From NCBI RefSeq assembly GCF_054482595.1, contig NZ_CM137008.1: DNA of 64,000 nucleotides. One strand, 5' to 3'. Of this stretch, positions 7,133-62,577 are shown piece after piece. The notes below the pieces were generated by a model that was given only the letters and a program-made list of their open reading frames with translations, had not been told where the DNA came from and searched no databases. Within the stretch, counting starts at the first letter, position 1, and each line of letters starts with the position of its first letter. The position numbers and the translations under genes are program-made.

Positions 7133-8866
7133 GTGAAACAACAGATACAACTTCGTCGCCGTGAAGTCGATGAAACGGCAGACTTGCCCGCTGAATTGCC
7201 TCCCTTGCTGCGCCGTTTATACGCCAGCCGAGGAGTACGCAGTGCGCAAGAACTGGAACGCAGTGTTAAAGGTATGCTGCCCTGGCAGCAACTGAGCGGT
7301 GTCGAAAAGGCCGTTGAGATCCTTTACAACGCCTTTCGCGAAGGAACGCGGATTATTGTGGTCGGTGATTTCGACGCCGACGGTGCCACCAGCACGGCTC
7401 TAAGCGTGCTGGCGATGCGCTCGCTTGGTTGCAGCAATATCGACTACCTGGTACCAAACCGTTTCGAAGACGGTTACGGCTTAAGCCCGGAAGTGGTCGA
7501 TCAGGCCCATGCCCGTGGCGCGCAGTTAATTGTCACGGTGGATAACGGTATTTCCTCCCATGCGGGGGTTGAGCACGCTCGCTCGTTGGGCATCCCGGTT
7601 ATTGTTACCGATCACCATTTGCCAGGCGACACATTACCCGCAGCGGAAGCGATCATTAACCCTAACTTGCGCGACTGTAATTTCCCGTCGAAATCACTGG
7701 CAGGCGTGGGTGTGGCGTTTTATCTGATGCTGGCGCTGCGTACCTTTTTGCGCGATCAGGGCTGGTTTGATGAGCGTAACATCGCAATTCCTAACCTGGC
7801 AGAACTGCTGGATCTGGTCGCGCTGGGGACAGTGGCGGACGTCGTGCCGCTGGACGCTAATAATCGCATTCTGACCTGGCAGGGGATGAGTCGCATCCGA
7901 GCCGGAAAGTGCCGTCCGGGGATTAAAGCGCTGCTTGAAGTGGCAAACCGTGATGCACAAAAACTCGCCGCCAGCGATTTAGGTTTTGCGCTGGGGCCAC
8001 GTCTCAATGCTGCCGGACGACTGGACGATATGTCCGTCGGTGTGGCGCTGTTGTTGTGCGACAACATCGGCGAAGCGCGCGTGCTGGCAAATGAACTCGA
8101 TGCGCTAAACCAGACGCGAAAAGAGATCGAACAAGGAATGCAAATTGAAGCCCTGACCCTGTGCGAGAAACTGGAGCGCAGCCGTGACACGCTACCCGGC
8201 GGGCTGGCAATGTATCACCCCGAATGGCATCAGGGCGTTGTCGGTATTCTGGCTTCGCGCATCAAAGAGCGTTTTCACCGTCCGGTTATCGCGTTTGCGC
8301 CAGCAGGTGACGGTACGCTGAAAGGTTCCGGTCGCTCCATTCAGGGGCTGCATATGCGTGATGCGCTGGAGCGATTAGACACACTCTACCCTGGCATGAT
8401 GCTGAAGTTTGGCGGTCATGCGATGGCGGCGGGTTTGTCGCTGGAAGAGGATAAATTCAAACTCTTTCAACAACGGTTTGGCGAACTGGTTACTGAGTGG
8501 CTGGACCCTTCGCTATTGCAAGGCGAAGTGGTATCAGACGGTCCGTTAAGCCCGGCCGAAATGACCATGGAAGTGGCGCAGCTGCTGCGCGATGCTGGCC
8601 CGTGGGGGCAGATGTTCCCGGAGCCGCTGTTTGACGGTCATTTCCGTCTGCTGCAACAGCGGCTGGTGGGCGAACGTCATTTGAAGGTGATGGTCGAACC
8701 GGTCGGCGGCGGTCCACTGCTGGATGGTATTGCTTTTAATGTCGATACCGCCCTCTGGCCGGATAACGGCGTGCGTGAAGTGCAACTGGCTTATAAGCTC
8801 GATATCAACGAGTTTCGCGGCAACCGCAGCCTGCAAATTATCATCGACAATATCTGGCCAATTTAG
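7133..8866 (+). CDS. recJ: Single-stranded-DNA-specific exonuclease RecJ
   Basis: 577-aa ORF starting at a GTG codon (7133); DHH motif region VIVTDHHLP present. Confidence 0.95.
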   Translation: MKQQIQLRRREVDETADLPAELPPLLRRLYASRGVRSAQELERSVKGMLPWQQLSGVEKAVEILYNAFREGTRIIVVGDFDADGATSTALSVLAMRSLGCSNIDYLVPNRFEDGYGLSPEVVDQAHARGAQLIVTVDNGISSHAGVEHARSLGIPVIVTDHHLPGDTLPAAEAIINPNLRDCNFPSKSLAGVGVAFYLMLALRTFLRDQGWFDERNIAIPNLAELLDLVALGTVADVVPLDANNRILTWQGMSRIRAGKCRPGIKALLEVANRDAQKLAASDLGFALGPRLNAAGRLDDMSVGVALLLCDNIGEARVLANELDALNQTRKEIEQGMQIEALTLCEKLERSRDTLPGGLAMYHPEWHQGVVGILASRIKERFHRPVIAFAPAGDGTLKGSGRSIQGLHMRDALERLDTLYPGMMLKFGGHAMAAGLSLEEDKFKLFQQRFGELVTEWLDPSLLQGEVVSDGPLSPAEMTMEVAQLLRDAGPWGQMFPEPLFDGHFRLLQQRLVGERHLKVMVEPVGGGPLLDGIAFNVDTALWPDNGVREVQLAYKLDINEFRGNRSLQIIIDNIWPI

Positions 8867-8956
8867 CGTCATCTTCTCTATAAAAAAGAGCGTGGATTGG
8901 GTACAATCCCGCTCTTATCACCGCATTTTGACTAGCTCAATAAAAGAAATCAGACC

Positions 8957-10055
8957 ATGTTTGAAATTAATCCGGTAAATAATCGCATTCAGGACCTCAC
9001 GGAACGCTCCGACGTTCTTAGGGGGTATCTTTGACTACGACGCCAAGAAAGAGCGTCTGGAAGAAGTAAACGCCGAGCTGGAACAGCCGGATGTCTGGAA
9101 CGAACCCGAACGCGCACAGGCGCTGGGTAAAGAGCGTTCCTCCCTCGAAGCCGTTGTCGACACCCTCGACCAAATGAAACAGGGGCTGGAAGATGTTTCT
9201 GGTCTGCTGGAACTGGCTGTAGAAGCTGACGACGAAGAAACCTTTAACGAAGCCGTTGCTGAACTCGACGCCCTGGAAGAAAAACTGGCGCAGCTTGAGT
9301 TCCGCCGTATGTTCTCTGGCGAATATGACAGCGCCGACTGCTACCTCGATATTCAGGCGGGGTCTGGCGGTACGGAAGCACAGGACTGGGCGAGCATGCT
9401 TGAGCGTATGTATCTGCGCTGGGCAGAATCGCGTGGTTTCAAAACTGAAATCATCGAAGAGTCGGAAGGTGAAGTGGCGGGTATTAAATCCGTGACTATC
9501 AAAATCTCCGGCGATTACGCTTACGGCTGGCTGCGTACAGAAACCGGCGTTCACCGCCTGGTGCGTAAAAGCCCGTTTGACTCCGGCGGTCGTCGCCATA
9601 CGTCGTTCAGCTCCGCGTTTGTTTACCCGGAAGTCGATGACGATATTGATATCGAAATCAACCCGGCGGATCTGCGCATTGACGTTTATCGCGCGTCCGG
9701 CGCGGGCGGTCAGCACGTTAACCGTACCGAATCTGCGGTGCGTATTACTCACATCCCAACCGGGATCGTGACCCAGTGCCAGAACGACCGTTCCCAGCAC
9801 AAGAACAAAGACCAGGCCATGAAGCAGATGAAAGCGAAGCTTTATGAACTGGAGATGCAGAAGAAAAATGCCGAGAAACAGGCGATGGAAGATAACAAAT
9901 CCGACATCGGCTGGGGCAGCCAGATTCGTTCTTATGTCCTTGATGACTCCCGCATTAAAGATCTGCGCACCGGGGTAGAAACCCGCAACACGCAGGCCGT
10001 GCTGGACGGCAGCCTGGATCAATTTATCGAAGCAAGTTTGAAAGCAGGGTTATGA
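8957..10055 (+). CDS. prfB: Peptide chain release factor 2, requires programmed +1 ribosomal frameshift
   Basis: Frame 0 from ATG 8957 reads [25 protein letters not shown] then TGA at 9032-9034; the +1 frame from 9033 continues [13 protein letters not shown]... into supplied ORF 9174-10055 (SPF and GGQ motifs). Shift site CTT TGA C preceded by internal SD-like AGGGGG. Confidence 0.95.
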
Positions 10056-10064
10056 GGAACCAAC

Positions 10065-11582
10065 ATGTCTGAACAACACGCACAGGGCGCTGACGCGGTA
10101 GTCGATCTTAACAATGAACTGAAAACGCGTCGTGAGAAGCTGGCGAACCTGCGCGAGCAGGGGATTGCCTTCCCGAATGATTTCCGTCGCGATCATACCT
10201 CTGACCAATTGCACGCAGAATTCGACGGTAAAGAGAACGAAGAACTGGAAGCGCTGAACATCGAAGTCGCTGTTGCTGGCCGCATGATGACCCGCCGTAT
10301 TATGGGTAAAGCGTCTTTCGTTACCCTGCAGGATGTGGGTGGCCGCATTCAGCTGTACGTTGCCCGTGACGATCTGCCGGAAGGCGTTTACAACGAGCAG
10401 TTCAAAAAATGGGACCTCGGCGACATCCTCGGCGCGAAAGGTAAACTGTTCAAAACCAAAACCGGCGAACTGTCTATCCACTGTACCGAGTTGCGTCTGC
10501 TGACCAAAGCACTGCGTCCGCTGCCGGATAAATTCCACGGCTTGCAGGATCAGGAAGCGCGCTATCGTCAGCGTTATCTCGATCTCATCTCCAACGATGA
10601 ATCCCGCAACACCTTTAAAGTGCGCTCGCAGATCCTCTCTGGTATTCGCCAGTTCATGGTGAACCGCGGCTTTATGGAAGTTGAAACGCCGATGATGCAG
10701 GTGATCCCTGGCGGTGCCGCTGCGCGTCCGTTTATCACCCACCATAACGCGCTGGATCTCGACATGTACCTGCGTATCGCGCCGGAACTGTACCTCAAGC
10801 GTCTGGTGGTTGGTGGCTTCGAGCGTGTATTCGAAATCAACCGTAACTTCCGTAACGAAGGTATTTCCGTACGTCATAACCCAGAGTTCACCATGATGGA
10901 ACTCTATATGGCTTACGCAGATTACAAAGATCTGATCGAGCTGACCGAATCGCTGTTCCGTACTCTGGCACAGGATATTCTCGGTAAGACGGAAGTGACC
11001 TACGGCGACGTGACGCTGGATTTCGGTAAACCGTTCGAAAAACTAACCATGCGTGAAGCGATTAAGAAATATCGCCCGGAAACCGACATGGCGGATCTGG
11101 ACAACTTCGACTCTGCAAAAGCGATTGCTGAATCTATCGGTATCCACGTTGAGAAGAGCTGGGGTCTGGGCCGTATCGTTACCGAGATCTTCGAAGAAGT
11201 GGCAGAAGCACATCTGATTCAGCCAACCTTCATTACTGAATATCCGGCAGAAGTTTCTCCGCTGGCGCGTCGTAACGACGTTAACCCGGAAATCACAGAC
11301 CGCTTTGAGTTCTTCATCGGTGGTCGTGAAATCGGTAACGGCTTTAGCGAGCTGAATGACGCGGAAGATCAGGCGCAGCGCTTCCTGGATCAGGTTGCCG
11401 CGAAAGATGCAGGTGACGACGAAGCGATGTTCTACGATGAAGATTACGTCACCGCACTGGAACATGGCTTACCGCCGACAGCAGGTCTGGGGATTGGTAT
11501 CGACCGTATGGTAATGCTGTTCACCAACAGCCATACCATCCGCGACGTTATTCTGTTCCCGGCGATGCGTCCGGTGAAATAA
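10065..11582 (+). CDS. lysS: Lysine--tRNA ligase (constitutive)
   Basis: 505-aa ORF immediately downstream of prfB; class II aaRS motifs; matches remembered LysS. Confidence 0.95.
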
Positions 11583-11602
11583 GCATTACGTTATGCTCAT
11601 AA

Positions 11603-11626
11603 CCCCGGCAAATGTCGGGGTTTTTT
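11603..11626 (+). terminator. Rho-independent terminator after lysS
   Basis: ccccg-gcaaatgt-cgggg stem-loop followed by a run of six T. Confidence 0.75.
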
Positions 11627-12173
11627 ATTTAAGCTGGGTAAATGCAGATAATCGTATTCTGGCTTCGCGATTTGTCGCCTGCATCACCATCCACGGACTG
11701 AATGCCCACGGCGTGGCATCAATACCGCGTAATACATCTGCTAAATCACACCATTGATAATCCATCACTTCATCATCGTTGATCTGTAACGCACTGGTGG
11801 TGCGTGCGGCAAATACCGGACACACTTCATTTTCCACAATGCCATTCGGATCGGTGGCGCGATAGCGAAAGTCAGGATAGATAGATTCAGGAGGCGTAAT
11901 TTCCACGCCAAGCTCATAACGGCAACGGCGGATCACCGCGTCTTCGTTGCTTTCTCCCAGTTGTGGGTGCCCACAAACCGAGTTAGTCCACACGCCAGGC
12001 CATGCTTTTTTGCTCAGAGCGCGACGGGTAACTAATAATTGTCCTTTGGCATTAAACAGCCAACTGGAGAACGCGAGATGTAAGCGGGTGTCTGCCGTGT
12101 GTGCGGCATACTTTTCCAGCGTACCCGTGGGAACTCCCTGTGCATTCAATAAAATGACGTGTTCCGTTTGCAT
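11625..12173 (-). CDS. idi: Isopentenyl-diphosphate delta-isomerase
   Basis: 182-aa [28 protein letters not shown], Nudix-type IDI; K-12 synteny. Confidence 0.93.
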
Positions 12174-46181: not shown

Positions 46182-46255
46182 GCGGGCGTAGTTCAATGGT
46201 AGAACGAGAGCTTCCCAAGCTCTATACGAGGGTTCGATTCCCTTCGCCCGCTCCA
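46182..46255 (+). tRNA. glyU: tRNA-Gly (anticodon CCC)
   Basis: 74 nt: 7-bp acceptor stem GCGGGCG/CGCCCGC, anticodon loop CTTCCCAAG, T-loop GGTTCGATTCC, 3' CCA encoded. Confidence 0.95.
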
Positions 46256-46344
46256 AAACTTCCCTAACGTATTCATTCCACTATCTTTTTCTAAACTATA
46301 CGTGACGGCGCTCGTGATCCTCCTACAAAGGGGTCATACAGCCG

Positions 46345-48288
46345 ATGTCGCAGCGTGATAATCTCTATCGCCGTCCAAGTGGTATCTATGTTCTTCGGAT
46401 CACTGTTCCGGTTCGTTATCGCGCCCTTATAGGGCAGCGTGAAATTCATGCATCTACCCGCACAACCCACCTTGCAAATGCCAGAGCTATTGCCGCGTGT
46501 TTGCTGGAGAAGTGGTATGCGTCTCTGGAAGAGTTCAGGCAAGTGGATAAAGAGAAGATCAGGGGCAATGCCCCATTGTTGACTGGCGCTGGCAAAATCA
46601 GCCTGGCGTTGTTTTGCGATTCATTTGGGGTTGGGGTTGAGACTGTCGTCCAGCATCTTCTGGCAGACAATGTGCCGCTGTATGCCCTTGTGTCGAACCA
46701 GCGTGGCTTTTTGATTGATGATTTCAGCACTCTTGAGCGTGATCCTGATACGCATGGGTTCGTTTTGACTAATATTGCGTATGACGGTGCTGAGGCTGCG
46801 GTGAACGGCTATATGCAGCTTTACCAGCCTCAGTTTGCCCTTGTTGAATTGCTGAACGGGCGAGAGGTTGAGGTTACGGCATTCAGGGCTAACAACGGCA
46901 ACCCTCTTTCCCTCTGGTTGTTGGATTTACCCGGGGTGACGCTGAATGCAAGTTCTTTGTTCATCAACAACGTGCAGGCTGAAAAACTGCGTTACGTCTG
47001 GGATAGCGCGCTTGCAGCATCGGAACCGACATCAACCACCCCACCAAAAGCGCCGACAGCGGCGCTTCCTGCGGCCGCTACTATCAACCCGTATTGTAAT
47101 CCGATGCATGCAAGCATGACGGTTTCAGCAGTTCTGGAAGAGTTTCTGGCCTATAAAAATACGGGTGATATCAAGTTAGCCAGTGAGGGGAAAATTCGTT
47201 CCAGAATCGAGCACTTTACGGAGATTATGGGTGATATGTCCTTAGGTGAGCTGGATCGTGAGGTCGTGAAGGATTACGTCAGTAGAATGCAGAAAATGCC
47301 CGGCAATCTGTATTTGATGCGGCGGAAATACAAGATTTCCGACACGCGAATGTTGATCGAAAGGGCGCTGGCTGATGGTCAGCCGGTAATGAGCCGGGAT
47401 GCGATTGGCAGGCATATTGAGTCACTGGGTTCGATGTTCAAATGGGCCAAGAAGGTGCGTTACCTGCTTGATAATCCAGCCGAGAATGTGCTCGCTCAGC
47501 GCCGCGTGATGGTGCGTGAGCAGGATCGCCGAGATCTCTTCACCGAGGATGAACTATTGCGTATTTTCTCTGCTGACTGGTTCAAAACTGGTGCCGGAAC
47601 ACCTAACCAATACGGACGTTACACGAGCTTTCGCCCGTTTCACTACTGGTTGCCCCTACTGGCATTATATGTGGGCGGGCGCATCAATGAGCTTTGCCAG
47701 CTTTATCTGGCGGACATTCGCGTGGATAAAAACGGTGTTGCCTATATTGATTTTAATCTTGATGCACCGGATAAGATGATGGATGAAGAGGCACTAGCCG
47801 GTGGCGATAAATCCTTGAAAACGGTGAATGCTATCCGTCAGGTTCCCCTACATCCACGACTGATCGAACTAGGGCTACTTGAGTATGTGGATGCGTTGAA
47901 AGCTGCCGGGTATGATCGTCTTTTCCCTGAGTTGAAGCATAATAAAATCAAAGGATATCGTGCCGCCGCCTCAAAATGGTTTAACGAAAACTACTTTGGC
48001 AAAGTCCTCGGTTTTACCCGTGACGGTAAGAAAACGTTCCATTCGCTGCGGCATACTTTCATCAACGCTGTTGACAAGTATGAGACCAACGAACGCACGA
48101 TTGCGCAGCTTGTTGGACATGTCCGGGGCAGCACTACTGCGATGACAACCTATCGTAAGGATGCTGATGTGGGAGAGCAATTGGACGTGATTTCGCAGCT
48201 TTGCTACAACTTGCCTGATATTGCGCAATTCGACTCGCAAGCGGGTATCAAGGCGGTCAGTGACGCACGGCGCAGACATAAATCGTGA
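46345..48288 (+). CDS. Tyrosine site-specific integrase with a long N-terminal extension (647 aa)
   Basis: Starts 90 bp after glyU; C-terminal region carries HSLRHTF and GHVRGSTTAMTTYRKD (catalytic His-x-x-Arg and Tyr motifs). Confidence 0.85.
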   Translation: MSQRDNLYRRPSGIYVLRITVPVRYRALIGQREIHASTRTTHLANARAIAACLLEKWYASLEEFRQVDKEKIRGNAPLLTGAGKISLALFCDSFGVGVETVVQHLLADNVPLYALVSNQRGFLIDDFSTLERDPDTHGFVLTNIAYDGAEAAVNGYMQLYQPQFALVELLNGREVEVTAFRANNGNPLSLWLLDLPGVTLNASSLFINNVQAEKLRYVWDSALAASEPTSTTPPKAPTAALPAAATINPYCNPMHASMTVSAVLEEFLAYKNTGDIKLASEGKIRSRIEHFTEIMGDMSLGELDREVVKDYVSRMQKMPGNLYLMRRKYKISDTRMLIERALADGQPVMSRDAIGRHIESLGSMFKWAKKVRYLLDNPAENVLAQRRVMVREQDRRDLFTEDELLRIFSADWFKTGAGTPNQYGRYTSFRPFHYWLPLLALYVGGRINELCQLYLADIRVDKNGVAYIDFNLDAPDKMMDEEALAGGDKSLKTVNAIRQVPLHPRLIELGLLEYVDALKAAGYDRLFPELKHNKIKGYRAAASKWFNENYFGKVLGFTRDGKKTFHSLRHTFINAVDKYETNERTIAQLVGHVRGSTTAMTTYRKDADVGEQLDVISQLCYNLPDIAQFDSQAGIKAVSDARRRHKS

Positions 48289-48461
48289 GATGTGCCAAAC
48301 GCGCCAGGAAGCTCTATGGCGCGTTTTTTATCAAGGGTAGTGGAAATCATGGTGCGGAATTTGCGGCGCTTTCGTAGCTCGACTGGCGCAGCTAGATGAA
48401 TCAGATGTAACCTTCAACAAGCAGCCTCTTTCGCAATATTTAAACAACTAGCGGAGTATGG

Positions 48462-48677
48462 ATGTTAATGGCGACCTACAGACAAATTGCCGATGATGTT
48501 AAATCCCGAACGGGGAGAACAGTCAAAACATGTTGGATAGCGCATGTTAAGTCATTGCATGGGCTAACCCGCCGCGTATCTCCAAACCGCATTAGCACCG
48601 AAAGCCGTGTTTATCCTTGCCCTGATAAATGGGTTGCGGAGATCGAGCAATCAATGAGAAATCTGGGCGAGCTTTAG
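48462..48677 (+). CDS. Small DNA-binding protein, possibly AlpA/excisionase-like
   Basis: 71-aa ORF downstream of the integrase; C-terminal KWVAEIEQSM resembles the AlpA-family W-x-x-E-I motif; weak assignment. Confidence 0.35.
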   Translation: MLMATYRQIADDVKSRTGRTVKTCWIAHVKSLHGLTRRVSPNRISTESRVYPCPDKWVAEIEQSMRNLGEL

Positions 48678-49035
48678 CTCTTTACTGCGCCGCTTAACTT
48701 TTGAGTCTGTTTGGCTCTATAAGGACTGTCTCGCCGCCACGGAAATTTTCGGACGCAATGCCTGAGAGGGAGCTTCCAAACCTAGGACTTCCACTTTCCC
48801 GCACCCAACTTATCCGGCTGCTTTTAACCGCGAACACGTTGAAGGTTAACAACGTTTAGTTCATGTCTGACTGAAAGGAACGGCCACCGACAAACACCGT
48901 TAGAGAAGGTATGTAAGCTGATAGTTGAGTTGCTATATATACAGTTATTAAGAGAACTGCACCCAGACCAGCAGGAATGCAGCTTCTTTCCTGCTGATTG
49001 TCACTTTTTTCTGGAATAAGGGAACGAGCGGTAGT

Positions 49036-50052
49036 TCAAACGTGGAGACGACGTAAGGCGCCCTTGACGGCGTTTTGCAGATCGCTAACAACCGCCAGAT
49101 GAGAGCTTTCTTTCCGCAGACGCTTGTCACCGTTGACCATCATCCAGCTACGTTTATCCCTACGCCCGATGTTATTGAATGAATGCAAGCCGCGCTCGGC
49201 TGTTGCGTCGTTCACCCTACGAACTGCGTTGATAGCGGTAAACCTGAACATATCACCGTTAGCCATCATTTCAGGCTCGATTGGTTTGCGAAATTTGAAC
49301 AGGTGAGCGAGGGTTTCAAATCGAAAGTGTTGTATGTCGTTAAGGCGGTTAAGAGAGTAGTGAGTGAGCACAGCACCTTTTAACGTGACTTCAACACGAG
49401 CGCGTTGCTTTTCTACAGGTAGTTTCTGACCGTCGTCAGTGCATTTGTGGTAGACATGCCACGAGATCTTGTCCCACTTGTTACCCGTTCTCAGGTTCCA
49501 TTCAGGATTGATACGAACATCCTGAACATCAAGGAAAACATTTTGTCGAGTTACGGGATTGTATTGTCGGGCTTTGGTTCCCGGACTGAACAGGGAACTT
49601 TGAAGCCGATAGGTCATCGCATTTGTAGCGGTAATCGACCGGGCTTTGTGCCAGAAATCGCAGAAGACTTCGACCCCCACAATTTGCGGCTCGTAAGCAA
49701 ATGGGAAACGATTTTGTAATTGGTCGAGGGCGGCTTCCAACTTCCCGTTATGGTTTGCTAGTAGATCGCGAAAGCGAATCCGAAAAACGTTGTTAGTGTT
49801 GCTTATGATGGGCTTTACCCAAGGTTTGACGTAGTTACCGGGACGGTGTTCGCACGATGCCAATTTTGAGATACGTAGACCGCAGGGTTCAACCCAGAGT
49901 TTTAATCCGGTGATTTTAAGTAATTCTTCCTGAACATAGCGATGCTGGGTCAGTCTAGATAAGCTGATCGTTATGTCCAGCCAGTCGATCCCGGCTGAGA
50001 CTTTAAAGAATTTGCGGTCTGCTTCGGCAGCTTTGCATTCTCGACTCTTCAT
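49036..50052 (-). CDS. Hypothetical protein, possibly YagK/YfjJ-like (inovirus Gp2-type replication-associated)
   Basis: 338-aa ORF; N-terminal GIDWLDITIS motif and placement beside integrase/AlpA-like genes as in CP4-57-type elements; assignment from memory only. Confidence 0.4.
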   Translation of the reverse strand: MKSRECKAAEADRKFFKVSAGIDWLDITISLSRLTQHRYVQEELLKITGLKLWVEPCGLRISKLASCEHRPGNYVKPWVKPIISNTNNVFRIRFRDLLANHNGKLEAALDQLQNRFPFAYEPQIVGVEVFCDFWHKARSITATNAMTYRLQSSLFSPGTKARQYNPVTRQNVFLDVQDVRINPEWNLRTGNKWDKISWHVYHKCTDDGQKLPVEKQRARVEVTLKGAVLTHYSLNRLNDIQHFRFETLAHLFKFRKPIEPEMMANGDMFRFTAINAVRRVNDATAERGLHSFNNIGRRDKRSWMMVNGDKRLRKESSHLAVVSDLQNAVKGALRRLHV

Positions 50053-50173
50053 AGTGTGGCCTTATTGAACGGAATCTCAAACTGCCATCAGGGTAATTCG
50101 AACTGAGCAGGTTTGAGAGCATTCGAGCAAGGTAGCATAACAATTTTAAGATAAAAACCTTACTTATCAACTA

Positions 50174-50198
50174 ACTGCGTTCATATTCTGAACGCAGT
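50174..50198. promoter_or_regulatory. Perfect 10-bp inverted repeat (candidate operator) in divergent intergenic region
   Basis: actgcgttca-tattc-tgaacgcagt between the YfjJ-like gene and the serine recombinase gene. Confidence 0.4.
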
Positions 50199-50355
50199 AG
50201 TCGTTGTTAACTTAAAGGCATGAGAACACTGTCGTTTTTCATATACAAAGGGTGCTTCGGCTCACCTGTAGCGATTCAGAGAAAGCACATGGTGCTATCT
50301 GGTAAAGCCGTCAGCCAGCCTAATATGTCTTACCACTTTTGAGCGCCAACAAACG

Positions 50356-50457
50356 ACCGTTTTCTGGCACCTTTCGATCGCACACTTTCACACTGTTGGA
50401 AAATTAGCCTTGGCTTTTCTGGCAGGCCATCCTAAGTTGACACCGTTTTCTGGCAGG
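50356..50457 (+). repeat. Three direct repeats of TTTTCTGGCA upstream of the serine recombinase gene
   Basis: ccgttttctggcac (50358-50370), gcttttctggcagg (50413-50426), ccgttttctggcagg (50444-50457); 20-125 bp upstream of the recombinase start. Confidence 0.45.
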
Positions 50458-50477
50458 GGCCGGAAGAGGAGATGACT

Positions 50478-51041
50478 ATGGCGATTTTTGGCTACGGGCG
50501 CGTTTCGACATCGCAGCAGGATACTGAGAACCAGCGTTTGGAACTTGAGCAAGCTGGATGGACTTTCGACTTTTGGTTTACTGATGTTGTTAGCGGGAAG
50601 GTTCCTGCGCTGCAACGCAAAGCGTTTTCCGAAATGCTCAGCAAAATCCGCGATGGTGAAACGCTGGTTGTTGCCAAACTCGACCGACTGGGACGCGATG
50701 CGATTGATGTTCTCCAGACTGTCAGGGCGATGGCCGAGCGTAATATCAAGGTCATTGTCCACCAGCTTGGCACAACGGATCTCTCCTCTGCTGCCGGTAA
50801 ACTTCTGTTGTCGATGCTGTCAGCAGTTGCGGAGATGGAACGTGACCTACTGATTGAGAGGACCCATGCGGGTTTGTTGCGGGCAAAAGCTGAAGGCAAG
50901 AAGCTGGGAAGACCGTCGAAAATCGCCCCAGAAGTCCATAGGCTGATTATTGAGAAAAAGAATAATGGAGCCAGTGTCAGCGCACTAGCGAGGGAGTATG
51001 GCGTTTCCAGAGCGACTATAGCTGCACTATTAGATTATTAG
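50478..51041 (+). CDS. Serine recombinase (resolvase / DNA-invertase family)
   Basis: Supplied ORF 50472-51041; N-terminal GYGRVSTSQQ catalytic-Ser motif, KLDRLGRD, C-terminal HTH; second ATG at 50478 has better SD spacing. Confidence 0.88.
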   Translation: MAIFGYGRVSTSQQDTENQRLELEQAGWTFDFWFTDVVSGKVPALQRKAFSEMLSKIRDGETLVVAKLDRLGRDAIDVLQTVRAMAERNIKVIVHQLGTTDLSSAAGKLLLSMLSAVAEMERDLLIERTHAGLLRAKAEGKKLGRPSKIAPEVHRLIIEKKNNGASVSALAREYGVSRATIAALLDY

Positions 51042-51127
51042 CAATTTAGATTTTTATTACAACTTCTGAATGGCAAGAGTGCTAATCTTGGAGAGTAAAA
51101 GCCCCCAAATGGGGGCTAAGTTAATAA

Positions 51128-52903
51128 CTAATAATGGACGTTTGCGATGAATTGAGGGAGAAGTTCTTTAAAATCATCTCTATACATATCCATATCACTC
51201 TGGAAACGAGAGATTATTTCTGTAATTTCTTTGCTTTTGGATAATCTTCCTGCTGTAGCTGGTTCTAACAGTGCAGATCTTGTTAATACCCTTTTTATTA
51301 CAGGGATCCATAACTCCTTCGCATTTTCTCTATTGACGCCATCTTTGAAGGATAATGAATATTTATTAGGTATCGCTGAACCTAATATTATTTCCAATAT
51401 GCTTGCTATAGCATGAATCATTAACAGTGATACGCCAGGTTGGGTCAATAGCTTATGTTTAATAGTATCTATTTCAGGAAGCTGGTTATGCCTAAATTGT
51501 TCATTAAAATCCGATTTTATCTGGCTTATAGCTTCATTTAAAGAATAGACAAAGATAATATGACCTAGAGTAATTGTATCATCAAAAGCCTTTTTATAGA
51601 GATCCTCATCATCCCAAATATCTTTTTTTCGATGATATGCACTTGTAGGATGAGCATGAAAAGCGATCAGGATTTGTGCAACTGTATCCGTTGGTAATAA
51701 AATTCTTTTTTGAGCCGGAGTTAACACTTGGCGAAGGCCACCTGTATATAAAGCTTCCTTATTTTTCTCGAAATCCTTTCTTAATCTTTTTTGTATAGAA
51801 TCACTGGAGCGAAAATCTGAGCGCAAGACCTTGTTTTGTGAATTATTCGCTAGAGTGATTTCATTAATTAGTTCGGGATTATTAACTCTTATGAACCTAA
51901 TTGCAACTCTTAGCGTATCATCTGGATCTTTCCCTAAATTTGAAATACTACCAGTAGTTTGAGCACCATTGACAATAGAAATACCAGTAACACTTTTAAT
52001 TTGACCGAGTGTTTTGGATTCGTCAATGAAATCAATTTCAAAATCATGGACTAAGGCAGTGATTCCGTTATTAAATACAAAGAAATTTCCTGGGTGTGTT
52101 TTAGCCGTGTTTTGTATTTCATTATTTATTGAGAGGTCTTTTTTATTACTTCCTAAATAAGACCTTACATTAGCGCTGAATAGTTTATCTTCACCGTAGC
52201 TATTATATAGTTCTTTAATAAATTTCCCTGGCATAAGGGTAGAAAATGAGGCCCAGTTTTCATTAGAGTTTTGATAAAAGCCATGCATACCAGTCAGCGA
52301 TATTTTATCTGATATCAAAATTGGACTGTGTTGAGAGTTATATAATTCATCAAGTGAACTTAAACCCATTTGCTTGGAGCTTATTCTCAGGTTATCAATA
52401 TGATAAATTGAGTTTAATTTGTCCATAATTGAACGCCCAATCGAATGTAAAGGTTTCTCACATTCTGGTGTTTCAGGGCAGTTATGAACAAACCATACAT
52501 TTATTTTCTCAATTTCATTATTTCTTAAAGCATCTCTTGCATCTTTTACCTGATCCCTTATCCTCAGAGGTATATTCTCTATATCAGCGGAAAGCAACGC
52601 GGTTTCTGCATAAGCTGTTTCTTGGGCCTTAGACGGCTTGGCCCCTTGAGGTCGAAATATAGTAGATTGATAAGATTGTATAAGATATATTTGTTTGCTT
52701 TCTCTATCGGTCATTAATATGTCTATATTTTCATCATCTCCCCCTTCAGTTATTATGTCGGGAGCTATCAATTCAATGCTGTCTATATTGTTATGTAACT
52801 CTATTGCATATAATGCACAATTTAAATTACCATATTTTTCTAGATCTTTTCTCTGTTGCAATGCTGACCAGAAAGAACTATCTGAAAGCTGTGTATATGT
52901 CAT
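51128..52903 (-). CDS. Hypothetical 591-aa protein, candidate abortive-infection (AIPR-like) phage-defence protein
   Basis: Long uninterrupted ORF in a visibly AT-rich segment with A/T-rich codon usage unlike flanking core genes; no Walker A motif; family assignment by size/context only. Confidence 0.6.
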   Translation of the reverse strand: MTYTQLSDSSFWSALQQRKDLEKYGNLNCALYAIELHNNIDSIELIAPDIITEGGDDENIDILMTDRESKQIYLIQSYQSTIFRPQGAKPSKAQETAYAETALLSADIENIPLRIRDQVKDARDALRNNEIEKINVWFVHNCPETPECEKPLHSIGRSIMDKLNSIYHIDNLRISSKQMGLSSLDELYNSQHSPILISDKISLTGMHGFYQNSNENWASFSTLMPGKFIKELYNSYGEDKLFSANVRSYLGSNKKDLSINNEIQNTAKTHPGNFFVFNNGITALVHDFEIDFIDESKTLGQIKSVTGISIVNGAQTTGSISNLGKDPDDTLRVAIRFIRVNNPELINEITLANNSQNKVLRSDFRSSDSIQKRLRKDFEKNKEALYTGGLRQVLTPAQKRILLPTDTVAQILIAFHAHPTSAYHRKKDIWDDEDLYKKAFDDTITLGHIIFVYSLNEAISQIKSDFNEQFRHNQLPEIDTIKHKLLTQPGVSLLMIHAIASILEIILGSAIPNKYSLSFKDGVNRENAKELWIPVIKRVLTRSALLEPATAGRLSKSKEITEIISRFQSDMDMYRDDFKELLPQFIANVHY

Positions 52904-53053
52904 GATAAAACCCTTTTTATTAATATGTAAATTTTATCTCATTCTATCTAAAATCATTTTTTTATATCTAATGATATAACATTAAATGTATGTGAAATAT
53001 TTAATGGTATCTGCTATGCCTTTGTTTATTAAAGCACAGTCTTCAAATCAGGG

Positions 53054-53161
53054 TCAACCAAACCACAGTATATTATATCCAACTATTGGATGTCGGTAAG
53101 CGACTAAGGCTAGTTGAGGTAACACATAAATAATACAATACCTTAGGGTATTGAGTTTCAT
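53054..53161 (-). CDS. Possible small ORF (35 aa, hydrophobic) with strong Shine-Dalgarno
   Basis: Minus-strand GAAGGAGGGACAGG-ATG...TGA encoding [35 protein letters not shown]; lies between IS2 and the 591-aa gene; several rare codons, so may be non-coding. Confidence 0.2.
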
Positions 53162-53289
53162 CCTGTCCCTCCTTCTACGAACGTATCCACGCAGCGACTA
53201 GACTGGCCCCCTGAATCTCCAGACAACCAATATCACTTATTTAAGTGATAGTCTTAATACTAGTTTTTAGACTAGTCATTGGAGAGCAG

Positions 53290-53655
53290 ATGATTGATGT
53301 CTTAGGACCGGAGAAACGCAGACGGCGTACTACACAGGAAAAGATCGCTATTGTTCAGCAGAGTTTTGAACCGGGAATGACAGTCTCCCTTGTTGCCCGG
53401 CAACACGGTGTGGCAGCCAGCCAGTTATTTCTCTGGCGCAAGCAATACCAGGAGGGAAGTCTTACTGCTGTGGCCGCAGGAGAACAGGTCGTTCCTGCCT
53501 CTGAACTTGCTGCCGCCATGAAGCAGATTAAAGAACTCCAGCGCCTGCTCGGCAAAAAAACGATGGAAAATGAACTCCTTAAAGAAGCCGTTGAATACGG
53601 GCGTGCAAAAAAGTGGATAGCGCACGCGCCCTTATTGCCCGGGGATGGGGAGTAA
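53290..53655 (+). CDS. insC: IS2 transposase OrfA
   Basis: [41 protein letters not shown], matches remembered IS2 InsC. Confidence 0.95.
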
Positions 53656-54518
53656 GCTTAGTCAGCCGTTGTCTCCGGGTGTCGCGTGCGCAGTTGCACG
53701 TCATTCTCAGACGAACCGATGACTGGAAAGATGGTCGCCGCAGCCGTCACTCAGATGATACGGATGTGCTTCTCCGTATACACCATGTTATCGGAGAGCT
53801 GCCCACATATGGTTATCGTCGGGTATGGGCGCTGCTTCGCAGACAGGCCGAACTTGATGGTATGCCTGCGATCAATGCCAAACGTATTTACCGGATCATG
53901 CGCCAGAATGCGCTGTTGCTTGAGCGAAAACCCGCTGTACCGCCATCGAAACGGGCACATACCGGCAGAGTGGCTGTGAAAGAAAGTAATCAGCGATGGT
54001 GCTCTGACGGGTTCGAGTTCCGCTGTGATAACGGAGAAAAACTGCGAGTCACGTTCGCGCTGGACTGCTGTGACCGTGAGGCACTGCACTGGGCGGTCAC
54101 TACGGGCGGCTTCAACAGTGAAACAGTACAGGACGTCATGCTGGGAGCGGTGGAACGCCGTTTCGGCAACGAGCTTCCGGCGTCTCCAGTAGAGTGGCTG
54201 ACGGATAATGGTTCATGCTACCGGGCTAATGAAACACGGCAGTTTGCCCGGATGTTGGGGCTTGAACCGAAGAACACGGCGGTGCGGAGTCCGGAGAGTA
54301 ACGGCATAGCAGAGAGCTTCGTGAAAACGATAAAGCGTGACTACATCAGTGTCATGCCCAAACCAGACGGGTTAACGGCAGCAAAGAACCTTGCAGAGGC
54401 ATTCGAGCATTATAACGAATGGCATCCGCATAGTGCACTGGGTTATCGCTCGCCACGGGAATATCTACGGCAGCAAGCCAGTAATGGGTTAAGTGATAAC
54501 AGGTGTCTGGAAATATAG
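53613..54518 (+). CDS. insD: IS2 transposase OrfB (DDE integrase domain)
   Basis: 301-aa ORF overlapping insC in the -1 frame, matches remembered IS2 InsD. Confidence 0.95.
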
Positions 54519-54640
54519 GGGCAAATCCAGCGACTTCTTGAGCTTCGCCTGAAAAATTTGAAACCATGCGCTTGATGAGAATTGCATCTAGGTTACATTT
54601 GTGGGAACAGATCGTTGCTAGGGTAGCTATAAAATAAAAA

Positions 54641-55393
54641 TTATAATTTATTCATGCAGTTAGTGTAAATGAATGCCGCTGAAACCTGAGCATCTTGCTT
54701 GGGGTGTTCATATACATAGTCAACGAAGGTTTTATAGAGCGCAATCATCTGGGGTGTGACTTCGGACTTGCCATTCATATTATCGAGACGCTGATAATAG
54801 TCTGCTTTGGTCATTCCTCCGTTTCGGCCTTTGGTTACGTTTGCGGTGAATTGTGCTATACCCATACACATTTGATCTTTATGGTTATTCGTTTTATCCG
54901 GGTGAAGAGCACCTTCCAACACTTTATCACCGCTGATGGCATGTTGCGCCCACGCTGAATTGTTGGCGATAAACTTTTTGGAGCCGGTGGCAATACCGTA
55001 TTCGATGCGAATGCCATTATCGTGATAGCTACCGTCAGCATCTTTAGTCGCTAACTTTAGAGATATGCGGCAACCGGGGAGCGTTTTGTGTTCTTGCACC
55101 GAAGCAATAACGGTGTCTGTATCGCAATCAGCAAAGCTGTATGTGGGATTAACATAGGTATTCGTTTTGAGTAGTAACCCGGTTAAGCCGTTTTTATAGC
55201 CTTTTGCCGGTAGGGTTTTAAAGGCGTTACGGTCGCCATCCTTAATCGCTTCCCGAAACTGATCCATCCCAATGCGGATTGCCAGTTGATCGATGCTCTC
55301 GGCTGCATATGATGCAGATGATGTAGCGATTAATATGATGCTCAGCAAAAACTTGGCTGGAAAAACGGGTTTAATAATTCGTGTTTGTGACAT
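54641..55393 (-). CDS. Secreted protein of unknown function (signal peptide)
   Basis: Supplied ORF 54641-55492; probable start MSQTRIIKPVFPAKFLLSIILIATSSASYAAE (55393) with AAGGA SD; predicted signal peptide cleavage near SYA-AE; several Cys. Confidence 0.6.
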   Translation of the reverse strand: MSQTRIIKPVFPAKFLLSIILIATSSASYAAESIDQLAIRIGMDQFREAIKDGDRNAFKTLPAKGYKNGLTGLLLKTNTYVNPTYSFADCDTDTVIASVQEHKTLPGCRISLKLATKDADGSYHDNGIRIEYGIATGSKKFIANNSAWAQHAISGDKVLEGALHPDKTNNHKDQMCMGIAQFTANVTKGRNGGMTKADYYQRLDNMNGKSEVTPQMIALYKTFVDYVYEHPKQDAQVSAAFIYTNCMNKL

Positions 55394-55510
55394 GTTGTTA
55401 TCCTTCAGAATCCACCCCTGCGGTGATTTTAATCGCATGATAACGCTTTGATTCAAAATGTCACTATTGGAGCGTGGCTCTTTAGTGGACATCTAATCAA
55501 ATTCAGGAGG

Positions 55511-55975
55511 ATGAAAAAGACCCTTCGATTTTTATTTGGACAACGTGTTAAGGCTCTACGTATAGCCGCCGGAATGAGCCAGGAAGCGTTTGCTGATCGG
55601 TGTGGATTTGCGCGTAGCTATATGAGCCGCATTGAACGTGGTTGCTCTAACGCGTCTCTTGATGCGATTGAGGTATTGGCTGAAGCTTTAAGTGTTGAGC
55701 CTTGGCAATTGTTAGCGTCCGATTCTTCCGAAGATAGCGCCCCGGAATTGTTGGTTCCATACGCGGCCGATGGCTCGTGCTTTCATCCCGGACTAGCGAG
55801 CACGCGCGATGGTTCGTTTGGTGTAGGTGATAAAGCCGCTCAGAAGCGTTTTGGCTCGTTTTTAGAAGCATTAGAGTATCTACGTAACATGAAGACAGCA
55901 AAATGGCGCAGACCCAATTCTAGCGGCAACTGGGGTATCGTATCAGCGGTTCGTTGGGACAAGCTGAGAAAGTAG
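55511..55975 (+). CDS. HTH (XRE-family) transcriptional regulator with C-terminal domain of unknown function
   Basis: Supplied ORF 55448-55975; start at 55511 (AGGAGG + ATG); N-terminal LRIAAGMSQEAFADRCGFARSYMSRIERG helix-turn-helix; about 80-aa uncharacterised C-terminal extension. Confidence 0.75.
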   Translation: MKKTLRFLFGQRVKALRIAAGMSQEAFADRCGFARSYMSRIERGCSNASLDAIEVLAEALSVEPWQLLASDSSEDSAPELLVPYAADGSCFHPGLASTRDGSFGVGDKAAQKRFGSFLEALEYLRNMKTAKWRRPNSSGNWGIVSAVRWDKLRK

Positions 55976-56150
55976 CTCAGGTGTAAGTTTCAGATTTTAA
56001 ATTACTGAATAAATAAACAGCTACCACATGAGGTGAATGGCCGCACGTTTTATCTGGCACTGATAACTATCAGCATTCCTAAAACACCAAAATACGGGTG
56101 CGTTACGTAGGCGTTACAGTGGCGTTTCACTTCAGCAATGGAGAGTGCTT

Positions 56151-57023
56151 TTGAAAAATAATCATTTGATATCATATGGTTTCCTAACCTCGCTGAGTGA
56201 TATTGAATTACTGTCGCTTCACTCCGAAATTTTAACGCAGTTGCGTTTTAGAGGTGTCATTCGCACCAAGAATAATCCTGTTGGTGACTATGCTGAATGG
56301 CTGGTTTCTAATGCACTGGGTATGACTCTTCTCAGTAATTCGTCGGCGGGTGCTGATGCCATTGATGCTGATGGCCTGAAAGTGCAGATCAAAGCTAGGA
56401 GAGTTACGCCGGATAATCCTTCCCGGCAGCTTAGTGCCTTGCGTAACTATGAGGCAGCCGAATTTGATTATTTAATCGCGGTTATTTTCGATGAGACTTA
56501 CAACATTCTTGATGCTTACAAAATCCCACATGAAGTAATACGAGATTATGCACGGCATAGTGACCACGTTAACGCACATATCGTTAACCTCAAGGGCGCG
56601 ATTCTTACTGATCCCCGAGTTAGTTCCATCAAAGAAGACTTGATTGTCAGGAGTTCGGCTTCAGTCAATGAAGCGGCTATGCAAACCCTTCCACCCGAAC
56701 CTATGGAAGAGGTTTTGAATCAACCAGAGAAGATAACGAGTAGTGTTACCTTGGTCAGCCTCCTTAAGGCTATCGGGATGGAGTGCTTTGTAAACTACTA
56801 CCATCATTTTGCCGATTCAAATTTATCAAGCGCTGATATCATTGAGCAAATGCACTCACGTGAGGGTTACACAGAGAAAAGTTGCCGGGGCCGTCTCAGT
56901 AAAGCGCGAAAAGTGATCAGGGATGGTTTAAGTATTGAGGCTTTGACGTTGATCGCTGACTCTGGGCGAATACAAGATTCTGTCAGAAGTGACGCGCTAA
57001 AACTTATCAGCGTTCTGGAGTGA
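56151..57023 (+). CDS. Hypothetical protein with Mrr-like (PD-(D/E)xK) nuclease motif
   Basis: Supplied ORF 56145-57023 (GTG); TTG at 56151 has GGAGAG SD; residues about 47-87 GDYAEWLVSNALGMTLLSNSSAGADAIDADGLKVQIKARRV fit the Mrr-cat pattern (Asp cluster then Q-x-K); C-terminal about 150 aa unassigned. Confidence 0.6.
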   Translation: MKNNHLISYGFLTSLSDIELLSLHSEILTQLRFRGVIRTKNNPVGDYAEWLVSNALGMTLLSNSSAGADAIDADGLKVQIKARRVTPDNPSRQLSALRNYEAAEFDYLIAVIFDETYNILDAYKIPHEVIRDYARHSDHVNAHIVNLKGAILTDPRVSSIKEDLIVRSSASVNEAAMQTLPPEPMEEVLNQPEKITSSVTLVSLLKAIGMECFVNYYHHFADSNLSSADIIEQMHSREGYTEKSCRGRLSKARKVIRDGLSIEALTLIADSGRIQDSVRSDALKLISVLE

Positions 57024-57076
57024 AGCGGTTTGCAAAACGTTGTAGTTCCTCCTACAAAACCCTCCTACAATGCACC

Positions 57077-59547: not shown

Positions 59548-60367
59548 GGCACTGTTGCAAATAGTCGGTGGTGATAAACTTATCATCCCCTTTTGCTGAT
59601 GGAGCTGCACATGAACCCATTCAAAGGCCGGCATTTTCAGCGTGACATCATTCTGTGGGCCGTACGCTGGTACTGCAAATACGGCATCAGTTACCGTGAG
59701 CTGCAGGAGATGCTGGCTGAACGCGGAGTGAATGTCGATCACTCCACGATTTACCGCTGGGTTCAGCGTTATGCGCCTGAAATGGAAAAACGGCTGCGCT
59801 GGTACTGGCGTAACCCTTCCGATCTTTGCCCGTGGCACATGGATGAAACCTACGTGAAGGTCAATGGCCGCTGGGCGTATCTGTACCGGGCCGTCGACAG
59901 CCGGGGCCGCACTGTCGATTTTTATCTCTCCTCCCGTCGTAACAGCAAAGCTGCATACCGGTTTCTGGGTAAAATCCTCAACAACGTGAAGAAGTGGCAG
60001 ATCCCGCGATTCATCAACACGGATAAAGCGCCCGCCTATGGTCGCGCGCTTGCTCTGCTCAAACGCGAAGGCCGGTGCCCGTCTGACGTTGAACACCGAC
60101 AGATTAAGTACCGGAACAACGTGATTGAATGCGATCATGGCAAACTGAAACGGATAATCGGCGCCACGCTGGGATTTAAATCCATGAAGACGGCTTACGC
60201 CACCATCAAAGGTATTGAGGTGATGCGTGCACTACGCAAAGGCCAGGCCTCAGCATTTTATTATGGTGATCCCCTGGGCGAAATGCGCCTGGTAAGCAGA
60301 GTTTTTGAAATGTAAGGCCTTTGAATAAGACAAAAGGCTGCCTCATCGCTAACTTTGCAACAGTGCC
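59548..60367 (+). mobile_element. IS26 (IS6 family), copy 2, inverted relative to copy 1
   Basis: 820 bp bounded by GGCACTGTTGCAAA repeats (59548 and 60354-60367); transposase protein identical to copy 1. Confidence 0.95.
59611..60315 (+). CDS. tnpA: IS26 transposase Tnp26
   Basis: Supplied ORF 59593-60315, same protein as 57592-58296 on the opposite strand. Confidence 0.95.
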   Translation: MNPFKGRHFQRDIILWAVRWYCKYGISYRELQEMLAERGVNVDHSTIYRWVQRYAPEMEKRLRWYWRNPSDLCPWHMDETYVKVNGRWAYLYRAVDSRGRTVDFYLSSRRNSKAAYRFLGKILNNVKKWQIPRFINTDKAPAYGRALALLKREGRCPSDVEHRQIKYRNNVIECDHGKLKRIIGATLGFKSMKTAYATIKGIEVMRALRKGQASAFYYGDPLGEMRLVSRVFEM

Positions 60368-60436: not shown

Positions 60437-61342
60437 ATGACCGTAGTCACGACCGCCGATACCTCCCAACTGTACGCACTTGCAGCCCGACATGGGCTCA
60501 AGCTCCATGGCCCGCTGACTGTCAATGAGCTTGGGCTCGACTATAGGATCGTGATCGCCACCGTCGACGATGGACGTCGGTGGGTGCTGCGCATCCCGCG
60601 CCGAGCCGAGGTAAGCGCGAAGGTCGAACCAGAGGCGCGGGTGCTGGCAATGCTCAAGAATCGCCTGCCGTTCGCGGTGCCGGACTGGCGCGTGGCCAAC
60701 GCCGAGCTCGTTGCCTATCCCATGCTCGAAGACTCGACTGCGATGGTCATCCAGCCTGGTTCGTCCACGCCCGACTGGGTCGTGCCGCAGGACTCGGAGG
60801 TCTTCGCGGAGAGCTTCGCGACCGCGCTCGCCGCCCTGCATGCCGTCCCCATTTCCGCCGCCGTGGATGCGGGGATGCTCATCCGTACACCGACGCAGGC
60901 CCGTCAGAAGGTGGCCGACGACGTTGACCGCGTCCGACGCGAGTTCGTGGTGAACGACAAGCGCCTCCACCGGTGGCAGCGCTGGCTCGACGACGATTCG
61001 TCGTGGCCAGATTTCTCCGTGGTGGTGCATGGCGATCTCTACGTGGGCCATGTGCTCATCGACAACACGGAGCGCGTCAGCGGGATGATCGACTGGAGCG
61101 AGGCCCGCGTTGATGACCCTGCCATCGACATGGCCGCGCACCTTATGGTCTTTGGTGAAGAGGGGCTCGCGAAGCTCCTCCTCACGTATGAAGCGGCCGG
61201 TGGCCGGGTGTGGCCGCGGCTCGCCCACCACATCGCGGAGCGCCTTGCGTTCGGGGCGGTCACCTACGCACTCTTCGCCCTCGACTCGGGTAACGAAGAG
61301 TACCTCGCTGCGGCGAAGGCGCAGCTCGCCGCAGCGGAATGA
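60437..61342 (+). CDS. mph(A): Macrolide 2'-phosphotransferase Mph(A)
   Basis: 301-aa ORF MTVVTTADTSQLYALAARHGLKLHGPLTVNELGLDYRIV matches remembered Mph(A); high-GC segment. Confidence 0.93.
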   Translation: MTVVTTADTSQLYALAARHGLKLHGPLTVNELGLDYRIVIATVDDGRRWVLRIPRRAEVSAKVEPEARVLAMLKNRLPFAVPDWRVANAELVAYPMLEDSTAMVIQPGSSTPDWVVPQDSEVFAESFATALAALHAVPISAAVDAGMLIRTPTQARQKVADDVDRVRREFVVNDKRLHRWQRWLDDDSSWPDFSVVVHGDLYVGHVLIDNTERVSGMIDWSEARVDDPAIDMAAHLMVFGEEGLAKLLLTYEAAGGRVWPRLAHHIAERLAFGAVTYALFALDSGNEEYLAAAKAQLAAAE

Positions 61343-62577
61343 GCGAACGTCGATATAGCCCGCTCGCGACGCTGTTCGCGGCGACCTTTCTCTTCCGGAT
61401 CGGCAACGCGGTGGCGGCCCTCGCGCTTCCATGGTTCGTCCTGTCTCATACAAAGAGCGCGGCCTGGGCGGGCGCCACGGCCGCTAGCAGCGTCATCGCG
61501 ACCATCATCGGCGCGTGGGTTGGTGGTGGCCTCGTCGATCGGTTCGGGCGCGCGCCCGTCGCATTGATCTCGGGTGTGGTGGGCGGCGTGGCCATGGCGA
61601 GCATCCCACTGCTCGATGCCGTTGGCGCCCTCTCGAACACTGGGCTGATCGCTTGCGTGGTGCTCGGTGCCGCGTTCGACGCACCCGGTATGGCCGCGCA
61701 GGACAGTGAGCTGCCCAAACTCGGCCACGTCGCCGGGCTCTCCGTTGAGCGCGTCTCGTCACTGAAAGCGGTGATCGGGAACGTCGCGATTCTAGGTGGC
61801 CCGGCCCTTGGGGGGGCCGCAATCGGCCTGCTTGGCGCTGCGCCAACGCTCGGGCTGACGGCGTTCTGCTCCGTCCTTGCAGGTCTGCTCGGCGCGTGGG
61901 TGCTTCCCGCGCGTGCCGCTCGGACGATGACCACGACGGCGACTCTCTCCATGCGCGCCGGCGTCGCTTTTCTCTGGAGCGAACCCCTGCTGCGCCCTCT
62001 CTTTGGTATAGTGATGATCTTCGTGGGCATCGTTGGCGCCAACGGCAGCGTCATCATGCCTGCGCTGTTTGTAGATGCAGGACGCCAAGTAGCAGAGCTC
62101 GGGCTGTTCTCCTCAATGATGGGGGCTGGTGGTCTCCTTGGCATTGCCATTCATGCGTCGGTCGGCGCCCGGATATCAGCGCAGAACTGGCTGGCGGTGG
62201 CATTTTGTGGCTCTGCGGTGGGCTCGCTTCTGCTTTCACAGTTGCCAGGCGTGCCGGTGCTGATGTTGTTGGGCGCGCTCGTGGGACTGCTGACCGGCTC
62301 AGTCTCTCCCATTCTCAACGCTGCCATCTACAACCGCACGCCGCCAGAACTTCTCGGCCGGGTACTCGGCACGGTCTCGGCGGTGATGCTGTCAGCCTCG
62401 CCCATGGTTATGCTTGCGGCCGGCGCGTTTGTCGACCTTGCTGGTCCGCTCCCTGGCCTCGTTGTATCGGCCGTGTTTGCGGGGCTCGTGGCTCTACTCT
62501 CGCTCCGTCTTCAATTTGCTACAATGGCGGCGGCAGCCACAGCCTCCGCCCCAACCCATACAGAAGGTGAACACTGA
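61339..62577 (+). CDS. mrx(A): MFS-type hydrophobic protein Mrx(A)
   Basis: 412-aa polytopic membrane ORF overlapping the mph(A) stop by 4 nt, as in the mph(A) operon. Confidence 0.88.
   Translation: MSERRYSPLATLFAATFLFRIGNAVAALALPWFVLSHTKSAAWAGATAASSVIATIIGAWVGGGLVDRFGRAPVALISGVVGGVAMASIPLLDAVGALSNTGLIACVVLGAAFDAPGMAAQDSELPKLGHVAGLSVERVSSLKAVIGNVAILGGPALGGAAIGLLGAAPTLGLTAFCSVLAGLLGAWVLPARAARTMTTTATLSMRAGVAFLWSEPLLRPLFGIVMIFVGIVGANGSVIMPALFVDAGRQVAELGLFSSMMGAGGLLGIAIHASVGARISAQNWLAVAFCGSAVGSLLLSQLPGVPVLMLLGALVGLLTGSVSPILNAAIYNRTPPELLGRVLGTVSAVMLSASPMVMLAAGAFVDLAGPLPGLVVSAVFAGLVALLSLRLQFATMAAAATASAPTHTEGEH

Follow-up and report, generated by a model that had tools for sequence, protein, structure and literature searches.

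The window, a stretch of 64,000 nucleotides of DNA analysed as a whole, in all likelihood carries at 9017–9035 the site at which E. coli prfB, the gene for RF2, regulates itself by programmed +1 ribosomal frameshifting, a reading to which we assign a probability of about 0.98. The site reads CTTAGGGGGTATCTTTGAC and splits into codons as CTT AGG GGG TAT CTT TGA C. A first-pass annotation, made from the letters of the window, had described an intact prfB frameshift site here, with an in-frame TGA after codon 25 within CTT TGA C and an SD-like AGGGGG upstream of it. Every element that it named lies where it had placed it: the TGA is found at 9032–9034, correct to the base, and the AGGGGG at 9020–9025. 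Both the in-frame UGA and the SD-like element, either of whose absence it had regarded as fatal to the claim, are present. RefSeq labels identical DNA in the same way, since in strain XH990 it is annotated as prfB with a two-piece joined CDS that bears the note 'programmed frameshift' (WP_001701073.1). The prfB frameshift site is already known, and this copy is without departure from the consensus. Its elements and their surroundings are as follows.

8957..9031, + strand: prfB ORF1, the start codon and RF2 codons 1–25 in frame 0; its residues align to residues 1–25 of solved E. coli RF2
9020..9026, + strand: internal Shine-Dalgarno-like element AGGGGG(U), 3 bases 5' of the CUU codon; AGGGGG proper occupies 9020–9025
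9026..9028, + strand: spacer codon UAU (Tyr24), seen in the sequence; 60 of 68 relatives have T as its third base
9029..9032, + strand: slippery CUU U, with CUU at 9029–9031 in frame 0 and UUU at 9030–9032 in +1
9032..9034, + strand: in-frame UGA, the RF2-specific stop, frame-0 codon 26 and sensor of the RF2 level
9035, + strand: C that follows the UGA, giving the weak termination context UGA C; it also completes GAC, the first +1 codon, as its third base
9033..10055, + strand: prfB ORF2, read in +1, with 340 codons for RF2 residues 26–365 and the stop TGA at 10053–10055
10065..11582, + strand: lysS, which begins 9 bases after the prfB stop

Starting at the ATG at 8957, frame 0 runs through 25 sense codons before it meets the TGA as codon 26. 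The open stretch of the +1 frame begins only at 8979 and contains no ATG, GTG or TTG before 9174, and the joined prfB CDS, join(8957..9031, 9033..10055), encodes 365 aa. At prfB, the ORF list holds only 8957..9034 (25 aa) and, in a different frame, 9174..10055 (293 aa), which bears out the first-pass remark that the ORF track shows only the downstream frame, 9174–10055. The first ORF of a prfB autoregulatory site was expected to be about 25 codons long and to end in an in-frame stop readable by RF2 (UGA, rarely UAA; never UAG), and each feature of such a site that can be looked for in a sequence was found in the window. Taken alone, the short motifs are common: the two strands of the window together contain 13 copies of CTTTGAC and 9 of AGGGGG. 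The composite AGGGGG-N3-CTTTGAC occurs once, and still only once with one mismatch allowed; for the one-mismatch pattern, shuffling gives an expectation of 0.04 occurrences, with any match in 4 of 100 shuffles. The single composite sits exactly at the junction of the two RF2-homologous reading frames.

The identity of the product was established from the joined protein. The first-pass annotation had proposed aligning a two-frame translation to RF2, and the 365-aa protein indeed aligns without gaps over residues 1–365 to the E. coli RF2 structures 1gqe and 1ml5. The alignment with 1gqe (E 8e-241) contains one substitution (364/365 identical), and that with 1ml5 also contains one, Ala246 in the window versus Thr246 in the chain. 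Moreover, the NCBIfam model TIGR00020 for prfB scores the joined protein at 525.9 bits, above its cutoff of 370, while RF1 models gave scores below their cutoffs for the same protein. The Pfam domains PCRF and RF-1 cover residues 31–219 and 228–337, respectively. The SPF stop-codon recognition tripeptide is found as S205-P206-F207 (9570–9578) and the GGQ catalytic motif as G250-G251-Q252 (9705–9713).

These alignments bear directly on the idea that the two listed ORFs are independent genes, one for a 25-residue peptide (8957–9034) and the other for a shortened RF2 of 293 aa from the ATG at 9174. Exactly these two ORFs appear in the ORF list, and the ATG at 9174 is the first start codon of the +1 frame. 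However, the similarity to RF2 is gap-free from residue 1 across the junction to residue 365: residues 1–25 match RF2 in frame 0, and residues 26–72 (9033–9173, +1 frame) match it without any preceding start codon. The 293-aa product would also lack most of domain 1, given that PCRF starts at residue 31. We therefore regard two separate genes as exceedingly improbable.

RF2 codon 246 is GCG (Ala) at 9693–9695. According to an earlier report, Thr246 is found in K-12 only and reduces RF2 activity (PMC5373646). The Ala246 allele therefore indicates that the strain is not a K-12 derivative, and, since Thr246 is the K-12-specific and less active form, that the allele of the window strain is the canonical, more active one. 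The set-point of the feedback in an Ala246 strain may thus differ from that measured in K-12.

Within E. coli, the site is conserved. Several complete E. coli chromosomes match the 1201 bases from 8900 to 10100 with 100% identity, and the genes follow each other as xerD-dsbC-recJ-prfB-lysS-idi. The window is collinear with the XH990 chromosome, from which its first 50 kb differ by 2 mismatches. Exactly one copy of prfB was found in 5425 of 5426 complete E. coli genomes, and 5418 of these 5425 share at least 99% identity over the 141 bases that surround the site. Of 5419 E. coli genomes, 4410 carry the identical 40-mer at 9008–9047, and the other 1009 show one or two base differences in it. In the two variant genomes that were inspected, the changes are C9038T and G9042A (Ala29Thr), which fall just 3' of the site and leave 9017–9035 unaltered. 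C9038T turns TAC into TAT and is synonymous in the +1 frame only, as expected if the +1 frame is translated there.

A prfB match is missing in one of the 5426 complete genomes, and one E. coli assembly has the prfB region on a record with a plasmid label. These two cases are probably oddities of assembly or labelling.

To look beyond E. coli, we scanned one genome per species across phyla for a DNA pattern encoding HRLVRxSPFD, which lies about 520 nt 3' of the site. Because loci were selected by this downstream signature, the site itself had no part in the sampling. The scan returned 120 RF2 loci, 112 of which had enough upstream DNA to be assessed. CTTT(G/A)A was present at the homologous position in 69 of the 112 genes, namely 68 with a full leader and one (L116) with an incomplete leader. 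The distance from the first +1 codon to the His of HRLVRxSPF is exactly 173 codons in the window and likewise in 50 of the 68. CTTTGAC is found in 63 of these 68 frameshifting relatives, and their stop is TGA in 67, TAA in one and TAG in none. The SD-like core at the homologous position is GGGGG in 26 and GGAGG in another 26 (52/68 together), and 12 relatives share the identical 16-mer AGGGGGTATCTTTGAC.

The conservation of individual bases was then considered. The value of 2.0 bits at CTTT.A arises by construction, as this motif was used as the filter, and only the flanking positions count as independent evidence. Among these, positions -10, -7 and -4, all frame-0 third codon positions within the site, reach 1.32, 1.15 and 1.32 bits, respectively, compared with 0.11 bits on average for the six third positions immediately upstream of the site. 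In the +1 frame, the base after the stop is also a third position, and it is C in 64 of the 68 relatives (1.63 bits). The conserved third codon positions at the site show selection on the RNA sequence and not on the protein alone.

A one-base discontinuity of frame, with the ORF list in two pieces, is also what an indel error would give, so that the break could in principle reflect a mutational frameshift, or faulty sequencing or assembly, in a prfB pseudogene or mis-read gene. This explanation, however, has to face an identical break, base for base, in 5425 complete E. coli genomes; a break also occurs at the homologous codon of 69 out of 112 RF2 genes drawn from many phyla, where it always falls within CTTT(G/A)A and is accompanied by conserved third codon positions. 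In addition, RF2 is an essential protein, and apart from the break its two frames are intact and together 364/365 identical to crystallised RF2. An error or a decayed gene is thus scarcely credible.

The remaining 43 of the 112 loci encode RF2 in a single ORF, which starts 196–212 codons before the His (196–199 in all but L087, with 209). Actinomycetota account for 20 of the 43, and the others belong to Campylobacterota, Rhodobacterales and some Clostridia; a published survey agrees on this distribution of single-ORF prfB (PMC12421855). Five loci (L049, L052, L068, L077 and L113) were considered as frameshift loci and rejected, since each has a chance out-of-frame stop and a full-length single ORF that starts 196–198 codons before the His.

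Several loci of the sample stand out individually. An Amphritea sp. (L033, Gammaproteobacteria) has a single-ORF prfB without a frameshift, which is unusual in its class, and an Oscillospiraceae MAG (L042) has CTT TAA C, a rare TAA variant of the prfB site. In three Thermoleophilia loci (Actinomycetota of the Thermoleophilia/Solirubrobacterales type; L014, L096 and L106), CTT TGA C is found at the homologous prfB codon, which precedes the His of HRLVR by 171 codons. One of them, L014, is from Solirubrobacter ginsenosidimutans DSM 21036, with the stop at 1446 in the oriented sequence. Their frame-0 leaders of 25–28 codons are conserved and end in RLAAIREQMSLLSDYL followed by the stop, and the +1 frame goes on with DPAG. 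The SD-like element of these three loci is degenerate, being TCGGAC or GCGGAC. In the published survey, the prfB motif was found in 0 of 2,658 Actinomycetota genomes (PMC12421855). Judged by their sequences, the three Thermoleophilia loci may be an exception to this generalisation for the Actinomycetota, and our literature search found no paper that links prfB, frameshifting and Thermoleophilia.

The strength of the internal SD-like element was estimated from its pairing with the 16S 3' tail. AGGGGGU is predicted to form a duplex of 7 pairs and -10.7 kcal/mol with this tail, whose sequence was taken from general knowledge, the rRNA being outside the window. This is the strongest such duplex in prfB, and only 0.08% of the + strand 10-mers in the window match or beat it. 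At the prfB start codon (8930–8959), no Shine-Dalgarno sequence was recognisable, the best anti-SD duplex having -0.9 kcal/mol. A second strong internal anti-SD match lies elsewhere in prfB, GGAAGGUGA at 9463–9473, with -10.0 kcal/mol.

RNA folding of 9000–9100 gave z = -1.38, with 19 of 200 shuffles folding equally well, and thus no significant structure after the stop. This lack of a downstream stimulatory structure agrees with the known prfB mechanism. When the whole window was scanned against Rfam at gathering thresholds, a tRNA-Gly was the sole match and no curated family covered the site. A bypass of the UGA by read-through or recoding (e.g., selenocysteine or a near-cognate Trp) instead of a +1 shift has a probability close to nil: UGA C is a leaky context in which low-level read-through is expected, but frame-0 read-through would add 32 further codons up to the TAA at 9128 without any similarity to RF2, the +2 frame stops after 11 codons, RF2 is continued by the +1 frame only, and the RNA 3' of the stop lacks significant structure.

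For the +1 frameshift itself, the mechanism and the definitions of its elements come from published E. coli work (PMC12421855, PMC10798248). UGA is read by RF2 only, and termination at UGA C is slow (PMC10798248, PMC12421855). The UAU spacer codon occupies the E site while CUU is in the P site (PMC12421855), and the frameshift efficiency in E. coli is roughly 50% (PMC10798248, PMC12421855). Applied to the window, translation would start at the AUG at 8957 and proceed through 25 codons, which would bring CUU into the P site and UGA C into the A site. When RF2 is abundant, termination would occur at the UGA and a 25-residue peptide would be freed; when RF2 is scarce, the ribosome would pause at CUU/UGA C. 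Pairing of the SD-like element with the 16S 3' tail at the unusually short spacing of 3 bases would strain the mRNA and destabilise the E-site tRNA. The peptidyl-tRNA-Leu would then slip from CUU to UUU, GAC would be decoded next and full-length RF2 would be produced. In this manner, RF2 would adjust its own level by negative feedback.

We consider it improbable that the 25-residue peptide from internal termination at the UGA has a function of its own. Its conservation is fully accounted for by its role as the N-terminus of RF2, and it has been described as small and unstable (PMC10798248).

Given that lysS begins 9 bases downstream of prfB and that the sole terminator-like hairpin on the + strand lies after lysS, at 11601–11622, prfB and lysS are probably co-transcribed. 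A simple sigma-70 promoter scan over 8600–11800 found no promoter at consensus between recJ and prfB; its only match lies inside prfB and is within chance expectation.

Other features were observed at the far end of the window. A tRNA-Gly(CCC) gene at 46182–46255 is directly followed by a site-specific integrase gene at 46345–48288, and after the integrase the region 46182–57076 encodes a recombinase and AIPR-family (abortive-infection type), HTH and DUF6998 proteins, according to the XH990 annotation. The whole of 46182–57076 resembles a genomic island that has integrated at the tRNA-Gly gene. With respect to E. coli XH990, the window carries a 1.33-kb insertion at 53200–54527, at the ends of which the BLAST alignments overlap by 8 bases, possibly a target-site duplication. 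The insertion has the layout of IS2, with orfA at 53245–53655 and orfB at 53613–54518 in the -1 frame, and one record matching it annotates an 'IS3-like element IS2 family transposase'. This IS2 copy contains the heptamer A AAA AAG at 53607–53613, the classical -1 programmed frameshift site of the IS3 family, and the window therefore holds a second recoding site, opposite in direction to that of prfB. The match to XH990 ends at 57077, and 57077–64000 matches resistance DNA of plasmid type with the following features.

about 59593–60315: IS26
60437–61342: mph(A)
61339–62577: mrx(A)
62577–63161: mphR(A)
from about 63654: IS6100

A macrolide-resistance module thus appears to have been inserted in the chromosome, within the island.

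The closest known counterpart of the site is prfB of E. coli K-12, whose programmed +1 frameshift was reportedly described by Craigen and Caskey in 1986. The two share the species, the gene and its neighbours, the first ORF of 25 codons and the second of 340 residues, and the identical AGGGGG, 3-base spacer, CUU U, UGA and C; they differ in that K-12 RF2 has Thr246 and the window has Ala246. Bacterial prfB frameshift sites are also said to have been surveyed by Baranov in 2002. Surveys of prfB frameshift sites across bacterial phyla have been published (PMC12421855, PMC10798248). The sites of other phyla resemble that of the window in the position in the gene, the CTTTGAC core and the SD-like element 3 bases upstream, whereas some lineages have a degenerate SD-like element, a TAA (L042) or no frameshift at all (43/112 of the sampled genes), and the window has the full consensus.

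More distant systems share parts of this arrangement. Like prfB, dnaX and the IS3-family transposases use ribosomal recoding at a slippery sequence in a bacterial coding region, and in dnaX an upstream SD-like element likewise stimulates the shift. Unlike prfB, these genes shift in the -1 direction by a tandem slip on the A AAA AAG heptamer, with a longer SD spacing and no stop codon as sensor, and they set a fixed ratio of two products instead of a feedback on the activity of the product. Eukaryotic antizyme (OAZ) is closer in logic, with a +1 shift at the codon before an in-frame UGA that serves as an autoregulatory sensor. However, OAZ senses the concentration of polyamines and not a release factor, its stimulators are a downstream pseudoknot and an upstream sequence in place of rRNA pairing, and its sequence is unrelated to the prfB site.

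The first-pass annotation had presented the site as a known feature that helps to verify how the window is read, and it does serve this purpose: as a positive control, it confirms that the window was read in the right register. It also illustrates how a plain ORF track mis-reports the essential gene prfB, as a 293-aa fragment from the ATG at 9174 and an orphan ORF of 25 codons. Moreover, prfB is a textbook case of a protein that controls its own synthesis through the very reaction that it catalyses.
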